Source of the DNA: Flectonema sp. DT1601
Taxonomy: Eukaryota
Reading direction: 5' to 3'
Length of the DNA: 64,000 bases
Assembly: GCA_964019425.1 (NCBI GenBank)
Contig: OZ025796.1
Span: forward strand, 434,001 to 498,000
Both the position numbers and the translations under genes were made by a program. Positions 5,288 through 56,084 of this stretch are shown here, one piece after another. The notes beneath the pieces are model-generated. The model was given only the letters and a program-made list of their open reading frames with translations, ran no database searches and was not told where the DNA came from. The first letter of the stretch is position 1, and each line of letters opens with the position of its first letter.

Positions 5288-7060
5288 GAGGCGGTGCAGA
5301 AACCCCCCCCCCCCCCCCCAATTTTTACCAGGCTATTCTGTGGGCACCTAATACCCAATCCGAGCTCACCACCCCACGAAAATACTATCCAAAAAACTCA
5401 AATCCGGTACTGGGGCATCCTCTAACTGCTCACCAGTTTCAAAATTCTATATTTTTTGACTGTTTCTGGTACTTTTGCCTTGTGTCTCTGTTGGTTGCCC
5501 CTCAAAATACTCAAAAACCAGCTTAGCAGCTACATTGCAGAAATTTGTTTACACCCTGGGTTCCTATGAAGACTGGAATGATAGGAACAGGAGAAGTGAT
5601 GAGACAGGAGAATCATAGATCCCGTGAGAACTGCAGAGTACGATATCGGGTGGTGATTCTGAGTCACCCTTGCTGGCAGTGATGATTGAGCAATGTGAGC
5701 ATGCTGTTCACAATAAGTACACCCTCAGGATTACTGGAGTTTTTCTAGAATCTATAGCCGCTTGAGGACGCTGCTACAAGCTCTATGTTCCAGTGGCTGG
5801 GGATAGCAGAAGTGAATAAGACCGGGATAGTAGTAGGAAAGGAATTGTGGAAGAATAGGGACAAGAAGGTGGAGTCAGTGGTTGCCTGTCAGTTGTAACA
5901 CCTGACATGAAAAATCAGGTTCAATAAGAACTGGTAACCACTAGTGGTACCATAATATAAAACTCCTCCAAGTATCAAAAAAAGGAGAGAGGCAGTTACT
6001 GTTGCTGTTGAAAACATGATGACCTCGTATCAACTAGTTAATAATAACTCCCTCTAAAAGACACTATCTCATACACACAGTACTGTTCTCTACCTGGAGT
6101 TGAGTTTCAGCAGTTACGACGCTGTACGAATGTGTGCAACTACCGTCTCATCGACAAGAATCCATGAAAGAAGCTTGCCTGCCCGGCATCTTCAGTATTC
6201 GCCACATGTATCTGTGATGTTGACAGACGTAATGGGTGGATCTCTGGGGCCTTCAACATCATCGTAACTTCCTTCTGGCGCTCATAAAGTCCGAAGCTGA
6301 GAAGCGAACAACAATGAGAGGAATTATTGAAATAGATTCTCACATTGGAGATAAGAGACATGTCAGGTGTATTGAGAAGATACATCTAATCCATCCTGGT
6401 GACTATATCATGACTCTGGATTATAAAGAAAAGGACTTCTAATGACAGAAGGGACAAATTCCCCTTTCTATCAACAGGGGAAATAGTCTGCTTGGATGTG
6501 TACTACATGAGCAGTTTGGAACTGAGGTTCAGTGTGGCCATAACAACTTCCTACTCCCACACATCAACCAGAATGCGATAGTAACATATCCGGTTATGAA
6601 TAAGTTCTTCTTGATGTCTGAGAATGATAAGATGATTCACTATTGGGCTGATGCTGGTAGGCACCTTGAGAACACAACCGTCATCAGCCTGTTCTGTAAA
6701 ATAGGTTAATCAGCTTGGGTTAACTTTTTCCCTAGTCGGCATGGCAAGTCCGAATGTGATCAACATTTTGGCAATATCACATCTGTGCTGACACTCGAAT
6801 CTAAATCGCAGGAAATCTGGGCCTTCAAGAAAAGCAAAATTTCAAACATAATTTCTACCAGTGCTACACAGCTTACAAGGCAAATGTTACTAGAAACAGT
6901 CAAAAAAGTGAAATTTTTAAACTGGTGGACAGTAAAAGGGTGCCCCAGTACCGGATTTGAGTTTTTTGGATACTATTTTCGTGGGGTGGGCTCGGATTGG
7001 GTGTTAGGTGCCCACGGGATAGCCTGGTAAAAATTGGGGGGGGGGTTTCTGCACATCCTC
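5288..7060 (+). mobile_element. Decayed Sola-type (Sola2-like) DNA transposon
   Basis: ~190-bp imperfect TIRs (GAGGCGGTGCAGAAACCCC... / ...GGGGTTTCTGCACATCCTC), a 4-bp TSD ATTT at 5284-5287 and 7061-7064, GAG...CTC termini, and internal transposase remnants. Confidence 0.85.
6236..6790 (+). pseudogene. Disrupted DDD transposase remnant
   Basis: Fragments IMTLDYKE, IHYWADAGRHLEN (6635-6673) and WVNFFPSRHGKSECDQHFG (6716-6772), separated by stops and frameshifts; HGKxxxD is typical of Sola transposases. Confidence 0.75.
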
Positions 7061-36752: not shown

Positions 36753-36804
36753 GCGTGAGGCAGTTCTTCTTCTTCTTCCTCTTCTTATTCGTTCGTTCGT
36801 TCGT

Positions 36805-36839
<35 letters not shown>

Positions 36840-36954
36840 ATTTAACAAGTATTGTAAGAACGAAAAAGAATGTTGGCAGCACACGTAAACCTCCTTTAGC
36901 TTTATCAGTTTAAGTCGGTTCACGGTTTCGTGCACAAACAAAAAAACTCACAAA

Positions 36955-37842
36955 ATGTCGAAAGTAGATATCCCACAAGATTTCGACTGGTCAACTGTCG
37001 AGGTGCCTGAGATCCCGGAAGGGGCGCATCCGTCAGCGACAGACCAATGTTGTGTGTTTCCGTTATGCGGAAAAATACATACGGACGGCACGAACTGTCA
37101 CCGATGCGGTGAAATGGGCGAGACGGAATGTCTCAAGTCCCGTTTAGGCAACGACGAAGTCACCCAAGCCAGGTGGTTGCCTGAGGCATCCCAGGAATGG
37201 GTGTGTCCTCCATGTGGGTTTGTGCTCCGGAATGGAGCCCCATATGCAATGCTCGTACCGGAAGGGCGACATTTTAACGCAACGATGCCAGTTGCGGAAA
37301 CAGTTAAGGAATTAACTGTAGTGGAGCGGGTGACGATGGATCCACGTAGGGTCGTCACTTGGGTGGAAAACCTAAAAACCCCGTCTGGCCTGAATTACGT
37401 GTTTGCAGGTTTGCAACAGCGTTACGGCACAGTCAACGGAAAAGCAATCCCGGAGACTGCTGTCGAGGGCGGGGGAGCAGTGTCGCACGAAATGCGGCAC
37501 TTGCTGAGAATGATTGACGGCCTGCTACCGGTCTCCAACAGCTCAGGGCACGTCAGGCAGACGTTGCAAGTGGCGGTGGACCGCATGGAAGATCTGCTGT
37601 TCTCGACGAGGAACAGAAAGATGACCGGCGCCTATGAGGGGTACCTCAAGACGTACGGATACGGGGAGTATACGGAGCGACTAATTGGCCTCGCGATGAA
37701 GGAGACGATGAGAACCGCGCTCCCGGGACAAACCCACGAGGGTGACCAAATGAGCGGTGGCGACCGTAAACGTCATTTTTCCGGGAAGGGAGCTGGAGGA
37801 AATTTTTCCGGGAAGGGAGCTGGAGGAAAGAGGAAGTATTGA
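36955..37842 (+). CDS. ORF1, Gag-like protein with an N-terminal PHD-like Cys finger
   Basis: First ORF inside repeat A; CVFPLC..CHRC..EC..WVCPPC; basic Gly/Lys C-terminus. Confidence 0.8.
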   Translation: MSKVDIPQDFDWSTVEVPEIPEGAHPSATDQCCVFPLCGKIHTDGTNCHRCGEMGETECLKSRLGNDEVTQARWLPEASQEWVCPPCGFVLRNGAPYAMLVPEGRHFNATMPVAETVKELTVVERVTMDPRRVVTWVENLKTPSGLNYVFAGLQQRYGTVNGKAIPETAVEGGGAVSHEMRHLLRMIDGLLPVSNSSGHVRQTLQVAVDRMEDLLFSTRNRKMTGAYEGYLKTYGYGEYTERLIGLAMKETMRTALPGQTHEGDQMSGGDRKRHFSGKGAGGNFSGKGAGGKRKY

Positions 37843-40385
37843 ATGGAGGAAAAACCACACGATGTGTGGGGGCCTGTTCCGGAAGGGACGCAAGGCAAAA
37901 AGCGGATCGGAAGACCGCCAAAAAAATCACTTGCCATAGTGAACTCGGAGAAACTCGAGGAACTCGAGAGTCAGCTGGACCTGACACTGACCGGTTGTTT
38001 CGCCGAATCGACACAAGCATCGATAAGATCGGTAATGCGAAATTGGATCCCCTTCGATGCAACCATATGTGCGATAAAACCGGATATGCCGCCGACGCGG
38101 AGTTTCCTCCTGTGGCTACAGGCAAAGATCAACTTGGGAGAGTTGCAACCACAGTCGGCGAACCAATACTTGGCAAGTTTTCGCTCGGCTGCAATTCCGC
38201 CCACAGCTGCATTCCGGAAGGCCATGACAAGGTCAACAGACGAAAATCAGCGAAGGGAGGGAATGCTGACGAAAATACGCACCAAGGAAGAGATCACGGA
38301 AGTAATCCGTCGACAGGAAGGGATGTATGTAGCGGTGTTGGCCACACAATGGTCTCTGGCGGCGAGATTTATCGACCTGATGCTACTGAGGAGACGGGAC
38401 ATCCGGGAAGTCAGGAACGGTTACCTAATTGGCTTGGTCGGGGGGAAGACCGACAAAACGAGACGAGGTCAATGGATTCTGGTAGCAAAAAATGGCTCTT
38501 TATTCCGCGTGGTGTTGCAATGGTTGGCAACAACGAATGGCGAAATGGTATTCACGGGTTTGAACCGGTCGGGATACAACAGATGGCTGGAAAGACATCT
38601 CGACACCACGAGCCACTACATACGTCACAGTGCACTCACGTATGTCGCGTTGGAGTCGTCGGAACGGGACGCTCAGGCGATGGCGCGGCATGCATCAGGG
38701 ACGTCAACCCAGTTCTACATACCGCCGGAGACTTGGACCTCGACTCGGAATACGATAAAAGCGGCCGCACTACTGCAGTGAAAGCTATCCATGACAGACC
38801 TTTTTGGGCTTCAAAATTGGAAGCAGGATTCCGCATGTACGACTACGCGGAAGGATGGCTAACGGGGATAACTGGAACACGTTGTCCGCGAACATGTTAT
38901 GACGGAACCATATCTGGAATAAGAATGGAACCGGTAAACATGGAACTGCTAGTGGGAAGCTATCCGAACCTGAGAACAAACATGAGATGGATTGCAGATC
39001 CGAACTTTGTCATCCAAGTGATTAACAATTCGCCACAAGAAGACGAATCTGGGATAGGCGCAAAGAATGTCCAATTAAAACCTCATACCGAACGCATGCT
39101 TGAGCTTGGTTTCGCCGAACCATCTCCTAGATCGACGACGAATAGGTTCATGCACTCTGCTTTTCTCATACCGAAAAGTACACCTGGACAATTACGTTTC
39201 ATCCTAAATTGTAAGACTATTAATGAGTTAACAGCTTATACCTCGTTACCGCCATGCAGGCTACCGTCTTACGAAACGATAGTGGAAACCTTGCTACCAC
39301 GTAGGTACGCTTGCGAGTTTGACTTTACATCGTATTTCTTTCAATTCCCGATTCCTGAAAGAATTAGACCGTTGTTCTCTTTTCGAGTAGACAAGAAGAT
39401 CTACCGGATGACACGTCTACCGATGGGGTACAGAGGTGCACCTCAATTAGCCCAGGCTGTTCTTCTGAATCTGATCGAAGATGCAATAGATGGGAGGGAT
39501 GTGTCCGGCATTGGGTGGATTGACAATGCCATCTTTGCGGCGGATGATATACAGGTTCTACAATCGGTTAGAGATAGATTCCGAACTCTATGTCTGAAAT
39601 ATTCAATTACGATAGGCGCGGTCACAGAACCCAACACATACATAATCACATTAGGAATAGAAGCTGACTTGACGAGGAAATGTTGGAAACTAAAGGAAAA
39701 ATGGGTCAAAGCGGTCGCTGAACCAGGGAAAATGATCTTGGACTCACGCGTGAACCTACGACGTAGTTACTGGAAGATTTCGGGAATCATTTTGTGGAGA
39801 CGTCATGCGCTAAGATTACGTCTACACGAGGCGACAGAACTCCTGATGGGAATGTCTGAACTGATGCAGGAAGGCGACCCGAAATCTAAGGTTTTCTGGA
39901 ACACAGCAGTAAAAATCTCAGAGGAGTACATGAACTCTCTTAGGCTCGAGTTCAGGGAGCTTGTGAAGAACGAATGGGTGCGGTGGAATAAGCGTAGCTA
40001 TGAAACAGAAATGACTTTCGTATCTGATGCAAGTACAAAAGCCTGGGCATTTGTAGTGGGAAACTCTTATCGGAGAGGACGCTTCCCGCGCGATATAGTG
40101 AACATGGGGATTTTCGAAAAGGAATTTTTCGCAGTAGTCAAGGCCATTGAATATGTAGTGACAGAGTTAAAACTGCAGAGTTGCAGGGTGACGGGACATG
40201 TAGACAACAAGGGAGTTATCGGTTCGTTGCACCGTGGCTATTCTCTACAACAAAATGTACAACCCATGTTACGGACTATTCATCGACTGTTGGACAGGTC
40301 TAGTTCAGTTCTGCACGTCGAGTACGTGGCGAGCGAGGACAATATTGCTGACAAGCACACTAGACTGGAAGATGAAGCATACTAA
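37839..40385 (+). CDS. Pol: reverse transcriptase plus RNase H, with an N-terminal region overlapping the whole YR ORF in the -1 frame
   Basis: RT motifs FLIPKS..LRFILNC, FDFTSYFFQ, RLPMG, WIDN, LG; RNase H motifs SDAS, EKE, VDN, NIAD. The frame is open from 37770; the true start is uncertain. Confidence 0.93.
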   Translation: MNGGKTTRCVGACSGRDARQKADRKTAKKITCHSELGETRGTRESAGPDTDRLFRRIDTSIDKIGNAKLDPLRCNHMCDKTGYAADAEFPPVATGKDQLGRVATTVGEPILGKFSLGCNSAHSCIPEGHDKVNRRKSAKGGNADENTHQGRDHGSNPSTGRDVCSGVGHTMVSGGEIYRPDATEETGHPGSQERLPNWLGRGEDRQNETRSMDSGSKKWLFIPRGVAMVGNNEWRNGIHGFEPVGIQQMAGKTSRHHEPLHTSQCTHVCRVGVVGTGRSGDGAACIRDVNPVLHTAGDLDLDSEYDKSGRTTAVKAIHDRPFWASKLEAGFRMYDYAEGWLTGITGTRCPRTCYDGTISGIRMEPVNMELLVGSYPNLRTNMRWIADPNFVIQVINNSPQEDESGIGAKNVQLKPHTERMLELGFAEPSPRSTTNRFMHSAFLIPKSTPGQLRFILNCKTINELTAYTSLPPCRLPSYETIVETLLPRRYACEFDFTSYFFQFPIPERIRPLFSFRVDKKIYRMTRLPMGYRGAPQLAQAVLLNLIEDAIDGRDVSGIGWIDNAIFAADDIQVLQSVRDRFRTLCLKYSITIGAVTEPNTYIITLGIEADLTRKCWKLKEKWVKAVAEPGKMILDSRVNLRRSYWKISGIILWRRHALRLRLHEATELLMGMSELMQEGDPKSKVFWNTAVKISEEYMNSLRLEFRELVKNEWVRWNKRSYETEMTFVSDASTKAWAFVVGNSYRRGRFPRDIVNMGIFEKEFFAVVKAIEYVVTELKLQSCRVTGHVDNKGVIGSLHRGYSLQQNVQPMLRTIHRLLDRSSSVLHVEYVASEDNIADKHTRLEDEAY
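37843..38781 (+). CDS. Tyrosine recombinase
   Basis: Catalytic set R (LAARFIDL), K (GGKTD), HxxR (SHYIRH), H (ARH) and Y (TQFY) in the expected order and spacing. Confidence 0.93.
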   Translation: MEEKPHDVWGPVPEGTQGKKRIGRPPKKSLAIVNSEKLEELESQLDLTLTGCFAESTQASIRSVMRNWIPFDATICAIKPDMPPTRSFLLWLQAKINLGELQPQSANQYLASFRSAAIPPTAAFRKAMTRSTDENQRREGMLTKIRTKEEITEVIRRQEGMYVAVLATQWSLAARFIDLMLLRRRDIREVRNGYLIGLVGGKTDKTRRGQWILVAKNGSLFRVVLQWLATTNGEMVFTGLNRSGYNRWLERHLDTTSHYIRHSALTYVALESSERDAQAMARHASGTSTQFYIPPETWTSTRNTIKAAALLQ

Positions 40386-41237
40386 GAAATGATACACAAG
40401 AAGAACGAACACCGCATCGCATCGGTTTATTATCTCATAAAAGACCGTTATTCTCCCAACTTTGATAGATACCATATCAAACTAGACACGACGGCCACGA
40501 ACAATCCACTGGAAAGGGGTCCGGTTTCGTGCACAAACAAAAAATCACAGTGTTATATCAGTATTTTCTGTATAGTTGAAGTTAAAGCCAATTCTTTTTT
40601 GCATTTAACAAGTATTGTAAGAACGAAAAAGAATGTTGGCAGCACACGTAAACCTCCTTTAGCTTTATCAGTTTAAGTCGGTTCACGGTTTCGTGCACAA
40701 ACAAAAAATCACAGTGTTATATCAGTATTTTCTGTATAGTTGAAGTTAAAGCCAATTCTTTTTTTTTCCTCTTTGAGGTGATTATGCCATTATCTCGAAG
40801 TTAAATTACGTATTGCTAACTCCTGTAAGTATTTGTTTCTTTTTAAAGTTTTATTAAATTGCACATCATCTTCTTATGTTGGTATGCAGTTCTTGCTTCC
40901 AACATAATGTTTTTGTTGACGAACCTTGTGAACTGTACTTTTATGTCTTTGATATTTATGGTGTGAAATGTCCTGTTTGAACTCGTCATTGTAGCTATTA
41001 TTGTTATTAATTCACGCGAAAAAAAAAAATAGAAACAAACGGGAAAACTTTTATTCGTGCAAGTGTTCCAGCTTTAGCGAAACGGTTTTTTTTTTTTTTT
41101 TTTTTTTTATAGTATATCACACCTGGTCATACAGCTGAATGCAAAAAAAAAAAAAAAAAAATTCCCCCCTCCCCTTTTTTTTTTTTTTTTTTTAAAATTA
41201 ATCTTCTTGTAGACTACTGATACTAACTAACCTTATT

Positions 41238-43443: not shown

Positions 43444-46400
43444 ATGGACAAACTACACCGAGCGAAGAAGCGAATAAAAACAAACCCAAACAAACAACAT
43501 GAGAATCAAGTCAAGTCAGACCACGTCTACGACATCTACGCAAAAGTAAAACAACTCCAAAAGAAAGTTTCTCTTCAAACTGAAGAATTGTATAGTAGTG
43601 ACAAGTATGCACCTTTTTGTTACAACTAACGAAAGTAATTTCCTTTTTCTATAAAACATAAATAACTAAACAGATCTTTTACAAGGAGAACTTCGATAGA
43701 CAGAAGGCACACAAACAGAATATCTTTAACAGGAAGTTCAATGCAACTAAACTTACAGAGGAGAAGATCCAGTCAGATAATTGACTTCAGTGATAACGAA
43801 AGATTCGTATCATTCGATGCAGCAGCGCTCGATGGTCAACCGATTCATAGAAATAATCATCGGCAACGATATTCAGTAGATTCTCTCGATTCTCTCCCAG
43901 ATTCGAGATACGCTGCGAAGATAACGGAAGCGACGTCTTTTTTACCTTGTACGGATGATTCAATACTACCTAACATGTTTAATACTGAGAAACTATCTTC
44001 TGTTGAATACGCTCACGCGATGGCTGCTGTAGTCGATGAGGGGGATGACTTGGCACTACCAGCAGCTGACTTGGAACTGCTGCTTCAACGAGGTCGTGAA
44101 TTCTTTGGTGATAGAGATCTCCTGTCTAAGGATTATCACCCTCGTAACCGAGATGAAAAGGATCAGAAATACTCTATACTACTCACCGCATATAGATATA
44201 CTTGTGAATTACTTGACGAAGCTCTCTTCCTATGCGGACGAGTAGTGAAGGGAATGGAATTCAAAACAGAGCTTCAGCAACAAGCAGAAAATAAAGCATT
44301 GGAGGGTGACGAACGTTGCCGAGTCTTGATGGAAACTATTGCTCAAAAAGAAGCAGAGCTGGTTGAAAAAGACCGAGTCATCGACTCAACAGTTTCTCTA
44401 ATAGAAGAAACAAGAACTCGAGCCAAAGGAAAAGCTGACGAGGAACGTAACTGGTGGCAGGTTTGAGATTTTCCACTTTCCTTCTATCACTTAATCACAA
44501 TTTATTTTATTATAAACCAACTCAGGATCGCCTAACAGAATCTGAAGGAGCAGTAGAACGAGTTCGCGAAGAGATGCAATTAGAAGTCGCGTATCTTATG
44601 GAAGACGCTCGTAAAGAAGTAGCAAACAGTGAAGTAGAAAGTATCATGATTAAAGTAACTGAGGCTGAAATGGAATGCGCAAGTCTCCGAGCATCTTCCA
44701 AAAAGAAACAAGCTGAACTCGAATATAGAACGAAAATCTCAAGAGATCTGCAAGCTGAAGTGTCGCTACTACAATCTGATTTGCGTGACGCTCGTGTGTT
44801 TCTAAGCGATGAGAAAATCCGTCTTCTTGACAGAGAGGCAGAGGCTGCACGTCGTCTTGAAGATGATGCCGAATTAGTTAAAAAAACAACTCAATCAGTC
44901 ACGGACCAACTCACTCCCACAATCGACCAACTCACCTCACAAGTCCAACAACATGAAACTTCTATTACGGAGTTTGAGAAAACCTTAAAAATAAAGAGCG
45001 ATCAGATTATTTCACTTAAAGAGCAGGTTGACGGCTTTCAGACATATCAAAAAACTGAAAAAGAACAACTTAAAGTAATGAAAGCCCAGCAACTATCACT
45101 TGAAAAAGCCTACACAGAACAACTTGAAGCAGAGGCTGAAGTGTTAGCAGCGCGTGCTAAGCATGATGACAAGCAACATGCATTCCGACTTCGTTCTAAC
45201 TTATTATCAACTTTTGCAACAATGTTAGACGTCGGAAGGCTTCGACAATATTGGATAAAACTGACGACTTGGAGAATGAGAAAAACTTTTGTAAAACAAA
45301 TGGATGATCTTCGTGTTGAAATTGCCTCGAGAGACGTTCATCTAAAAACCATCATGGGAAAAAAGAACAAGGAACTCACTCTACTACAACAGAAACTGAT
45401 AGACACTAACACACAACATCAAGAAGCCCTGTTGACTGCTACCAAGGAAACTCGTTCATCTCTCAAGTCTCAATATGACAGCGAAGTAGCAACGCTTAAG
45501 AAAAGAATATCAATCCTAGAACGTCAAGTCTTATCGCAGCCTTCTATTGTAGCAGCCGGTTGTAAACTTCCGAAGGGGGAATTCACAAAGTCTGCTGCTG
45601 ATAAACAGGCTCATGAGACAGCAGTAGAGCTTCACACTCAACTGAAATTATTTAGTACATTGTTTGTTAAGAAGTTTAAAATGAAAAGATTCAACACTAA
45701 TGACATCACGTCTTTAGATGAGTCGTCACAAGTTCCAATTCCTCTGCAGGTGTTGAGGAGCTCAGCGGTAGTTATCACCTCATTCAAAACACTATTAGCA
45801 ATAGAGAGAAAGCTTCAACATCTGAAGAGGGGAATGGTGTTTCTTACTGTTGCTGAAAAAATAAAACTAAAGCGAATGCGTAAGAAACTTGCTAGACAAC
45901 AAGTATCAGAGCAAGAATCTCAGCTGGTTGAAAAACATGTTGTGCTTGTTGAGAAAACAATCGACAGGGCAATAGAAGTAAAGGAAGCCGTCCAGGGAGC
46001 TCAAAAGCGTCTTTTTACCGAAGCCACTGAAATAAACGCAGCAACAGTCACCCAGGAACTAGAACACCACACAACTTTAATCAATGAGCTGAAGAGAGAC
46101 ATGACTAGAGAAGAGTCTAAGATAGACGTACAAAAGGCACGCATAATGCTACAAGACATCGAGGACGGTAAATGGGTTTATGTTGCAGGTCAGAGGAGGT
46201 GGTGGCCAACTGAACGACCGCAGTCTTCTTCAAAAAATAATCCAGCCGTGCCAACTATCACACAACGTAGTAATCCTGATCCTTGGGAATATAGAAACGG
46301 CACTGCTATGTTATCCTTAAGTGTTGGACCTGCTAATTTAAGTCCCAAAGCAGTTTGTAGTATTGCTCATGGTGGTAGCATAGCTGTAAAGGAGCCACCG

Positions 46401-46634
46401 CAGAGTAATCCTCACAGTCGTGTTTTTCACACCCTTCCTCGTTATAGTAACGCCATTCTAATTCAGGGGATTACCAGACCTCAAACTGCTCCTCTTAAAC
46501 AGCTTGAAAAGGGTCGTATCCCAGCCGCTCTCGCAGCTCCTATATTATCTCCGCCAATGATAGTGGTACCGGCACGTCAGCTTCATCCTGGCAAGATGTT
46601 AAAAATTCAGTGCCTTCGTAAGAACCCCAACTAA
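43444..46634 (+). CDS. Large coiled-coil protein; exons 43444-43604, 43674-44460, 44526-46634 (~1018 aa)
   Basis: Three ORF-track pieces join in frame across GT-AG introns 43605-43673 and 44461-44525. Confidence 0.75.
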
Positions 46635-49834: not shown

Positions 49835-50829
49835 TAATGATGATAAACTTCTTTCTGGATCCAACTCTAATCCCTTTCTGGGACATGTTGATACCAAAGA
49901 AATCGAGCTTTTTAACAGTCTGAATAGTTCTCGTTGACTTCCCTCTTCTTCTCTTCAAACACTGAGGACTACTTCCCTTCTCTTCACTTCAAGTGTGAAG
50001 ACTCATTTCAGTTGTGAACCACTAATTGAAGGCAGCTCTTTAATGATGATAAACTTCTTTCTGGATCCAACTCTAATCCCTTTCTGGGACATGTTGATAC
50101 CAAAGAAATCGAGCTTTTTAACAGTCTGAATAGTTCTCGTTGACTTCCCTCTTCTCCTCTTCAAACACTGAGGACTACTTCCCTTCTCTTCACTTCAAGT
50201 GTGAAGATTCATTTCAGTTGTGAACCACTAATTGAAGGCAGCTCTTTAATGATGATAAACTTCTTTCTGGATCCAACTCTAATCCCTTTCTGGGACATGT
50301 TGATACCAAAGAAATCGAGCTTTTTAACAGTCTGAATAGTTCTCGTTGACTTCCCTCTTCTCCTCTTCAAACACTGAGGACTACTTCCCTTCTCTTCACT
50401 TCAAGTGTGAAGACTCATTTCAGTTGTGAACCACCAATTGAAGGCAGCTCTTTAATGATGATAAACTTCTTTCTGGATCCAACTCTAATCCCTTTCTGGG
50501 ACATGTTGATACCAAAGAAATCGAGCTTTTTAACAGTCTGAATAGTTCTCGTTGACTTCCCTCTTCTCCTCTTCAAACACTGAGGACTACTTCCCTTCTC
50601 TTCACTTCAAGTGTGAAGATTCATTTCAGTTGTGAACCACTAATTGAAGGCAGCTCTTTAATGATGATAAACTTCTTTCTGGATCCAACTCTAATCCCTT
50701 TCTGGGACATGTTGATACCAAAGAAATCGAGCTTTTTAACAGTCTGAATAGTTCTCGTTGACTTCCCTCTTCTCCTCTTCAAATACTGAGGACTACTTCC
50801 CTTCTCTTCACTACAGGTGTGAAGACTCA
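49835..50829. repeat. Tandem array of a 206-bp unit, ~4.8 near-identical copies
   Basis: Units start at 49835, 50041, 50247, 50453 and 50659. Confidence 0.95.
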
Positions 50830-51093
50830 ATCGTTGTCGTTGTGTCTGTAACCTTTCTGTTCTTTTGTATTTTCTGTCGGGTAAGTTTAAATAATTATAA
50901 AACGCTATTCAAGGACTGCGATCTCTTCTTTTAGAGTCTGTGGATAATATTGGTGTGAGATTTCATGTTAGCACAGCTTGTTTAGTTTGTTGATGTGTAG
51001 TTCTTTGATGATGTGCGTCGTTGAGTCACGTTTTAATATCCCCTTTTTACCACAGAAGTCACATTGGTAACCATTTGACTACACCACTGCCCC

Positions 51094-54979: not shown

Positions 54980-55334
54980 ACTAGTCATTGATTGAGTGAG
55001 TTGTATTTATTTTAATTGCATTGTAATGCTCTATAAGAGCTATGTACGTTAGCAGTCAACCTTTCAGAACTGTACTCAATGAATGAATGATTCCAAGACA
55101 GCCTCTAACCGTATCTAGCCACAACCACTTGACGTCATGAGAGGTGTTCTTCTCAATATTTTTTTTGTTTGCGCCGAAAATTGTACTTCAGTTTTTTTTT
55201 TTAATTTTTTTTTTTTTTTTTTTTTTAAATGCTGCATGTTCAGCCCCGACAGGAATTTTTTTTCCCCGTTTTTTTTTTTTTTTTTTCTTGCTTTCGTTTT
55301 CATCCGGGGTAAAAAAAAAACTTTTAAAACAAAA

Positions 55335-56084
55335 ATGTCTGAACCAGTAGCAGAAGTCCACGAAGAGATTACGGCAATAACAGCTGCGACAGAAGTAGAG
55401 GGAGAGGAAGGAGATGACAACTTAGACATGGAAATCGAAGAAATGAGATTAAAAGTAAAAGAAATGGAAGAACAGCTAAAGGGACAACAAACAGAACTCG
55501 CTGAAGGCGCCGGAGGAGAAGAAGAGTTTGCAGGAGACGATAATGCTTCGGTCTACATTGGACACGTTGACTACGCAGCCACTCCTCAAGAGTTATACAC
55601 TCACTTCGCTGAGTGTGGAACTGTAAAGAGAGTTACCATTCTTTGTGATAAGTGGACAAACCATCCAAAAGGTTTCGCGTACATGGAATTTGAAGATGTC
55701 GCATCTGTCGAAAAGGCAGTCACTCTCAACGACAGCACCTTCTGCGGCCGTAAGATTAAGGTTCTTCCAAAACGGACGAACCTCCCAGGTCACAACAAGG
55801 GACAAAAAGGAAGTAAAAAGGGTTTTAAGTCAGGCCTCAAGGTATGCACACACGACAAGGACCTGTCAAGCAGCCACACTTCTAAATAACTACAAACAGG
55901 GGAGCTGGTGGGATCCAACTTACGGTGGTGGCTTCAGTCCCTATGCCGCAGGAAAGGGTAAAAAGGGAAAGAAGAGTTGGTATGTAAGAAGAAAGGTTTC
56001 AGCTGAACTATTAACAGGTAGGTTAACATTAACAAATAAAACAGGTCTGGCAAGGCTGGTAAAAAGGGATTTAAAGGATGGTAG
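55335..56084 (+). CDS. PABPN1: Nuclear poly(A)-binding protein 2-like RRM protein; exons 55335-55841, 55900-55979, 56045-56084 (208 aa)
   Basis: Acidic coiled coil EIEEMRLKVKEMEE; SVYIGHVDY..HF.CG.VKRVTILCDK..HPKGFAYMEF..IKVLPKRTNLPG; two GT-AG introns. Confidence 0.9.

Follow-up and report, generated by a model that had tools for sequence, protein, structure and literature searches.

VIPER, a tyrosine recombinase (YR) retrotransposon of kinetoplastids, is the closest described counterpart in layout of the element reported here. Its arrangement of open reading frames (ORFs) has been published, and the portions of PMC5146736 and PMC6681497 covered here explain ORF3 by start codons. In the Trypanosoma cruzi element, ORF1 spans 169-1509, YR spans 1510-2517, and the reverse transcriptase/RNase H (RT/RH) frame runs from 1386 (PMC5146736, legend to Fig. 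1). We analyzed a window of 64,000 nucleotides (nt) of Flectonema sp. DT1601 (GenBank assembly GCA_964019425.1, contig OZ025796.1, positions 434,001 to 498,000 of the forward strand), a term that we use for this whole stretch, and found in it a YR retrotransposon of VIPER-like layout. We lean toward a reading in which a single mRNA of this element would branch three ways at the end of gag.

Stop-codon readthrough, as in murine leukemia virus (MLV), is one of the routes by which retroviral gag-pol is recoded. The other, shared by retroviruses and long terminal repeat (LTR) retrotransposons and resembling what we propose here, is a slippery X XXY YYZ sequence near the end of gag, which sets the ratio of Gag to enzyme (PMC5009743, in the part covered). 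Those systems employ one mechanism or two successive shifts, whereas the present element would place a shift only 33 nt from an in-frame stop, leading to two different enzymes from the same DNA. DIRS1-like and Ngaro elements are likewise YR retrotransposons with overlapping YR and Pol ORFs (PMC3266345, in the part covered), but they differ in repeat type (DIRS) or gene order (Ngaro), and the catalytic part of their YR lies 3' of Pol.

Reading frames at the gag, YR and Pol junction

The features used below, in window positions, are as follows.

36838..40764, + strand: intact YR retrotransposon of VIPER-type layout, ~3.9 kb, between T runs
36838..36952, + strand: split direct repeat A1, ~98% match to 40601-40713, directly after a long host poly-T tract
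36955..37842, + strand: gag-like ORF of 295 amino acids (aa) with a Cys/His-rich N-terminus, from ATG 36955 to a TGA
37770..40385, + strand: Pol frame (-1), 871 codons, first ATG 38067, with the RT and RNase H-like part after ~38840
37775..37828, + strand: perfect 27-nt tandem duplication (units 37775-37801 and 37802-37828), absent from a sister Gag, P0205
37800..37806, + strand: gag-frame slippery heptamer A AAT TTT, which spans the seam of the duplication and precedes the stop by 33 nt
37810..37854, + strand: purine-rich tract with no predicted local structure
37839..37845, + strand: TTGAATG, in which the gag stop TGA is followed in frame by the YR ATG and overlapped by a Pol-frame TTG
37843..38781, + strand: tyrosine recombinase (YR) ORF, 312 aa
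37855..37895, + strand: pair of short hairpins, the first 12 nt past the stop (z -2.85 for 37843-37902), a candidate readthrough stimulator
37920..37926, + strand: further canonical heptamer (A AAA AAA), here in the frame of YR, a rival shift site
40522..40764, + strand: 3' split repeats (B1 40522-40600, A2 from 40601, B2 40686-40764), the B/A seam being a T run

The gag ATG, the stop TGA (37840-37842) and the YR ATG (37843) are all in the same frame. Pol lies at -1 to it and opens after TAA 37767-37769, its first ATG being codon 100. The preliminary description had reported this direct TGA-ATG adjacency, as well as a Pol frame open from 37770 with no ATG near its start, and its coordinates are correct on both counts.

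Over YR, the -1 frame contains no stop in 312 codons, against 8-23 expected. None of the 59 risk sites carries a T, compared with 39 of 185 other sites (Fisher p 9e-6), and each third of YR is free of -1 stops. Because the Pol frame is stop-free across all YR codons, Pol is probably read from near the end of gag. All 14 risk sites ahead of the first Pol ATG are also avoided (P 0.001-0.09), which makes an AUG-independent start of Pol near the junction probable. We consider non-canonical entry into Pol near the junction highly probable from these patterns, and we regard a -1 slip into Pol as probable.

In the proposed scheme, a full-length RNA capped with the spliced leader (SL) would be translated from the gag AUG, and most ribosomes would stop at UGA and release Gag. 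A few would slip by -1 shortly before UGA, producing Gag-Pol with a linker of ~340 residues that runs over YR into RT, and a few would read through UGA-A in frame to give Gag-YR. Both enzymes would thereby be made as Gag fusions, suited to packaging. The preliminary description had likewise suggested that one mRNA could yield Gag, Gag-Pol and YR or Gag-YR; the stop-free overlap, the diplonemid relatives and the VIPER families support a single mRNA with a -1 shift into Pol and an in-frame stop before YR, but the heptamer it named is the weak link.

Separate messages could arise instead by alternative spliced-leader addition, or cis-splicing could join gag to Pol or remove the stop. In diplonemids, trans-splicing acts on essentially all mRNAs, and cis-introns occur as well (PMC10161547, in the part covered), and alternative start sites for VIPER ORF3 are mentioned in the covered part of PMC5146736. 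In-frame GT-AG pairs do exist in the element, for example 37836-37939, or 37742-38121 into the Pol frame. However, donor candidates match 3 of 6 consensus positions at most, the element has no GTRAGY, and its best acceptor, with 11 of 15 pyrimidines, is within the element's own background (17 of 83 YAG sites reach 9). Upstream pyrimidine tracts are weaker at the ATG of YR and at the first three of Pol (8-10 of 15) than in all 16 host ORFs (11-15 of 15), and a clean Pol frame in every third of YR would be needless if most of the overlap were skipped. The same layout is also found in kinetoplastids, where cis-splicing is rare. We therefore consider such RNA processing quite unlikely.

Kinetoplastid and diplonemid relatives

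The element shares with VIPER the order gag, YR, RT/RH, a YR directly after the gag stop and in its frame, and a Pol at -1 over all of YR, in agreement with the published VIPER coordinates so far as covered. It also shares WIDN at the RT active site, a heptamer before an in-frame TGA (TGA-ATG in T. cruzi), and split direct repeats arranged A1 .. B1 A2 B2, the VIPER pattern given in section 6 of PMC6681497. It differs in its likely diplonemid host, in an A AAT TTT apparently derived from a duplication with no stem after it, and in a shorter Gag that lacks a C-terminal CCHC box (CX2CX4HX4C). That box is present in only some VIPERs and missing from several published ones (PMC6681497, in the part covered).

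Inspection by eye of Additional file 10 of PMC6681497 shows a canonical gag-frame heptamer 21-42 nt before an in-frame TGA in all ten complete entries, which represent five families, and in each of them YR continues in frame past the TGA. The heptamer is G GGA AAC in B. saltans, A AAA AAC in T. cruzi (six entries, one apparently repeated), and A AAA AAA, A AAA AAC and G GGA AAC in the three families of C. fasciculata, one copy of which has frame breaks upstream. Four of the five families have a stem 6-9 nt after the heptamer; that of T. cruzi begins 6 nt downstream, pairs perfectly over 10 bp and carries the TGA in its loop. All five families have an A directly after TGA. The codon there is ATG in T. 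cruzi alone and ATC, ACC, AGC or AGT in the others, whose first in-frame ATG comes 8 to ~120 codons later. What the sequences show is the arrangement of the frames, an overlap under selection and the recurrence of these signals in VIPER copies.

An in-frame TGA-A is present in all five VIPER families and in the window, where hairpins lie 12 nt downstream. UGA-C is the common readthrough context, from which the UGA-A of the window differs. Since four of the five VIPER families have no ATG after TGA, we favor readthrough over stop-restart as the route to YR. Judged on these sequences, readthrough is evenly poised, whereas restart at the adjacent AUG is doubtful.

A broader form of this alternative has ribosomes terminate at UGA and restart either at the adjacent AUG, for YR, or at the overlapping -1 UUG, for Pol, as at AUGA and UAAUG stop-start sites. 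TTGAATG does contain both starts, two hairpins follow the stop, and ATGA is found at the stop in T. cruzi and in one C. fasciculata VIPER family (PMC6681497). Reinitiation is also known after long ORFs in viruses and in the retrotransposon SART1, where it tolerates near-cognate starts (PMC10275272, in the part covered). However, an NTG in the -1 frame comes automatically with any TGA, the YR ATG has a T at -3, and the missing ATG in four VIPER families speaks against restart there as well. The predicted YRs of Flectonema and D. papillatum start at an internal Met, ~60 and ~90 residues in, and reinitiation would leave the conserved heptamers and stems unexplained. We judge it very unlikely as an account of the junction.

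TATE resembles the element in gene order and repeat type. In the gag ends given in Additional file 11 of PMC6681497, so far as covered, a heptamer leads to YR in the -1 frame in all four entries, and that of B. saltans is A AAT TTT, as in the window. A second heptamer, T TTA AAY, stands at the same place before the YR core in three of the four entries, the B. saltans copy lacking it, and would lead to Pol. TATE thus appears to carry two successive -1 slip sites, from gag to YR and then from YR to Pol. Unlike in our element, the -1 frame after gag is YR in TATE, and no in-frame stop precedes it. The long TATE YR ORF, -1 to gag and with an N-terminal extra domain, also contrasts with the 312-aa YR of the element, which is in the gag frame.

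Among homologous Pol proteins, 8 of 12 have an N-terminal extension that can encode YR in its +1 frame; they represent five families, with D. papillatum and Flectonema among them. This decoding was done at the protein level only, a pass meaning a score clearly above all 8 shuffles, and one further protein was too short. In one family the Pol call starts with M-N-V, and the RT-proximal anchor comes 327 residues later; this would fit a TGA-A junction like that of the window. In an RT tree of 139 sequences, none of them an identifiable VIPER reference, the element and proteins of D. papillatum and Flectonema share a clade of 13 members (support 0.999). Searches for the DNA of diplonemid relatives gave 0 loci in the viral collection, 0 in prokaryote genomes and, in metagenomes, one RT-only contig without the junction.

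The candidate slip site and its competitors

AAATTTT at 37800-37806 is the sole in-frame canonical heptamer in gag, fits X XXY YYZ in the 0 frame and lies inside the gag/Pol overlap; two further in-frame heptamers, at 37920 and 38487, lie in the YR/Pol overlap. The position and frame of A AAT TTT within a perfect 27-nt duplication are as first described. The duplication is not an assembly artefact, as Gag contains both units on 10 contigs. It seems to have given rise to the heptamer, in which case an older, weaker site was probably used earlier. Conservation across copies, proposed earlier as a check, gave a divided answer: at the protein level, full-length Gag retains the N-F codon pair on 10 of 11 contigs, but P0205 (286 aa, 82-85% identical to the Gag of the window), which is possibly not intact, has lost it. 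Whether A AAU UUU at 37800 is the site used in the element's subfamily is, in our estimation, a balanced call.

A G-rich tract had also been noted downstream of the heptamer. A tract does follow and is purine-rich, but it contains no predicted quadruplex or stem, and a G-quadruplex as stimulator is not supported. The first hairpin lies 48 nt from the heptamer. The hairpins 12 nt past the stop are placed where they would suit readthrough or restart better than slippage at the heptamer. Separately, the duplication units can pair into a long hairpin spanning 37776-37828 with the heptamer inside (z -3.26).

Several points weigh against the three-way reading. A heptamer would be expected by chance in 4-11% of cases in a 23-codon overlap, and in 31% with the Gag protein held fixed. 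A AAT TTT straddles the duplication seam and is lost on removal of one unit, and P0205, without the duplication, has R-F in place of N-F, although this is known from protein only and that copy may not be intact. The 24 open -1 codons before the gag stop are at chance level, given 10 stops of that frame in the 295 codons of gag, and we therefore rejected the opening of the Pol frame at 37770 as evidence. No stem lies 5-9 nt after the heptamer, and the 40 nt that follow it form no structure whether quadruplex energies are counted or not, in a model that does not include pseudoknots. A long-range stimulator is not supported either, the best duplex reaching -22.3 kcal/mol compared with a shuffle mean of -24.4 kcal/mol. 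Four of the 12 Pol extensions show no clear dual coding with YR (three negative, one marginal). The published VIPER and TATE sequences were compared by eye, without tool folding or alignment, and, with no position for any kinetoplastid VIPER in the RT tree, the comparison with VIPER rests on layout and not on descent. Finally, among the 15 copies in Additional file 3 of PMC6681497, a table with off-by-one errors, at least three self-consistent B. saltans rows show other frame relations, so the VIPER layout is not universal.

The -1 shift might also take place elsewhere, either at A AAA AAA 37920 after readthrough or restart, or at an older non-canonical site within the repeat unit (a U run before UCC, or a G-K pair), with A AAU UUU as a by-product of the duplication. 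The birth of the 37800 heptamer at a duplication seam and its absence from P0205 would fit this, as would two G-K pairs in P0205 that are compatible, at the protein level, with G GGA AAA. The heptamer at 37920 is canonical and in frame, and with just four risk sites before it, the openness of 37843-37920 is weakly tested. On the other hand, a shift at 37920 would require one rare event to follow another, the sequence after 37927 shows no notable folding (z -1.72), and in all five VIPER families the heptamer comes before the stop and not after it. We consider a shift at such another site unlikely.

The element, its surroundings and implications

With a gag-like ORF, a tyrosine recombinase and RT/RNase H, the element belongs to the YR retrotransposons (order DIRS). 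The YR ORF has only a weak Pfam match (PF00589, E 0.052), but it scores 0.97-0.98 to integrase clusters in Atlas, its R, H-x-x-R-H, H and Y positions are conserved, and its diplonemid homologues stand at 41%. A Pfam search gave no significant match for the gag-like ORF, and no methyltransferase domain was seen in the element. The label 'Aspartic protease' attached to a D. papillatum Pol was not adopted, as it lacks Pfam support in the Pol protein of the window. An Rfam search returned two matches only, both at chance level. The Gag protein recurs unchanged on 9 contigs and almost unchanged on one more, which indicates a multicopy and young family. Since Diplonema papillatum and Flectonema neradi are the sources of the named YR and Pol homologues, a diplonemid host is likely.

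The element stands behind a T run of more than 30 nt (36802-36837), and a further T run marks the B/A seam at 40594-40600. From this setting, the element may recombine into poly-T tracts, and doing so would supply it with a trans-splicing signal of the host. A solo copy of repeat A (1720-1828, ~96% identical) likewise follows a poly-T tract directly; it closes with the final bases of repeat B and resembles SIRE, a short element derived from VIPER. The YR N-terminus carries a basic stretch, KKRIGRPPKK (37897-37929), without a Pfam match; we take it to resemble an AT-hook or a nuclear localization signal, and it could be a candidate for targeting T-rich DNA. The octamer AAGTATTG occurs at 36847-36854, at the first AG after the poly-T, and again at 37834-37841, at the last AG before the YR ATG, possibly by chance or as a shared acceptor context.

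Elsewhere in the window, a tandem array with a 206-nt period and copies 99% identical occupies 49835-50958. Long inverted repeat arms, 88-93% complementary and ~1.5 kb apart (5310-5456 and 6902-7045), possibly mark a small DNA transposon. Two long host ORFs in different frames (43741-46634) overlap at ~44451-44466 with CAG-GT at the break, probably reflecting an intron or a frameshifted gene. An ORF of 251 codons (55137-55889) contains 16 in-frame slippery heptamers and is probably low-complexity sequence.

No proposal of frameshifting or readthrough for VIPER or TATE was found in the covered parts of the literature searched, which included PMC12278014, PMC3266345, PMC10161547, PMC5009743, PMC7192593, PMC8547959, PMC10275272 and PMC12440569, with Lorenzi 2006 and the Poulter reviews outside the search. 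Frameshifting and readthrough are each known singly, and their branching use at one junction in YR retrotransposons appears to be undescribed. Within the same literature, the translation of the overlapping and often ATG-less ORFs of these elements is not addressed, and a candidate slip site and a putatively leaky stop within ~45 nt now give it exact positions.

More tentatively, euglenozoan YR retrotransposons may be recoded, with a three-way junction in the VIPER type, two -1 slips in TATE and, in the diplonemid subfamily of this element, a duplication-born site that works without a classical RNA stimulator. If the three-way reading is correct, programmed frameshifting and readthrough would operate on nuclear-encoded elements of trypanosomatids and diplonemids, in which trans-splicing has been assumed to separate ORFs. 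It would also offer an example in which tandem duplication gave rise to a recoding signal, and the annotation of VIPER and TATE would change from three free ORFs to Gag fusions.

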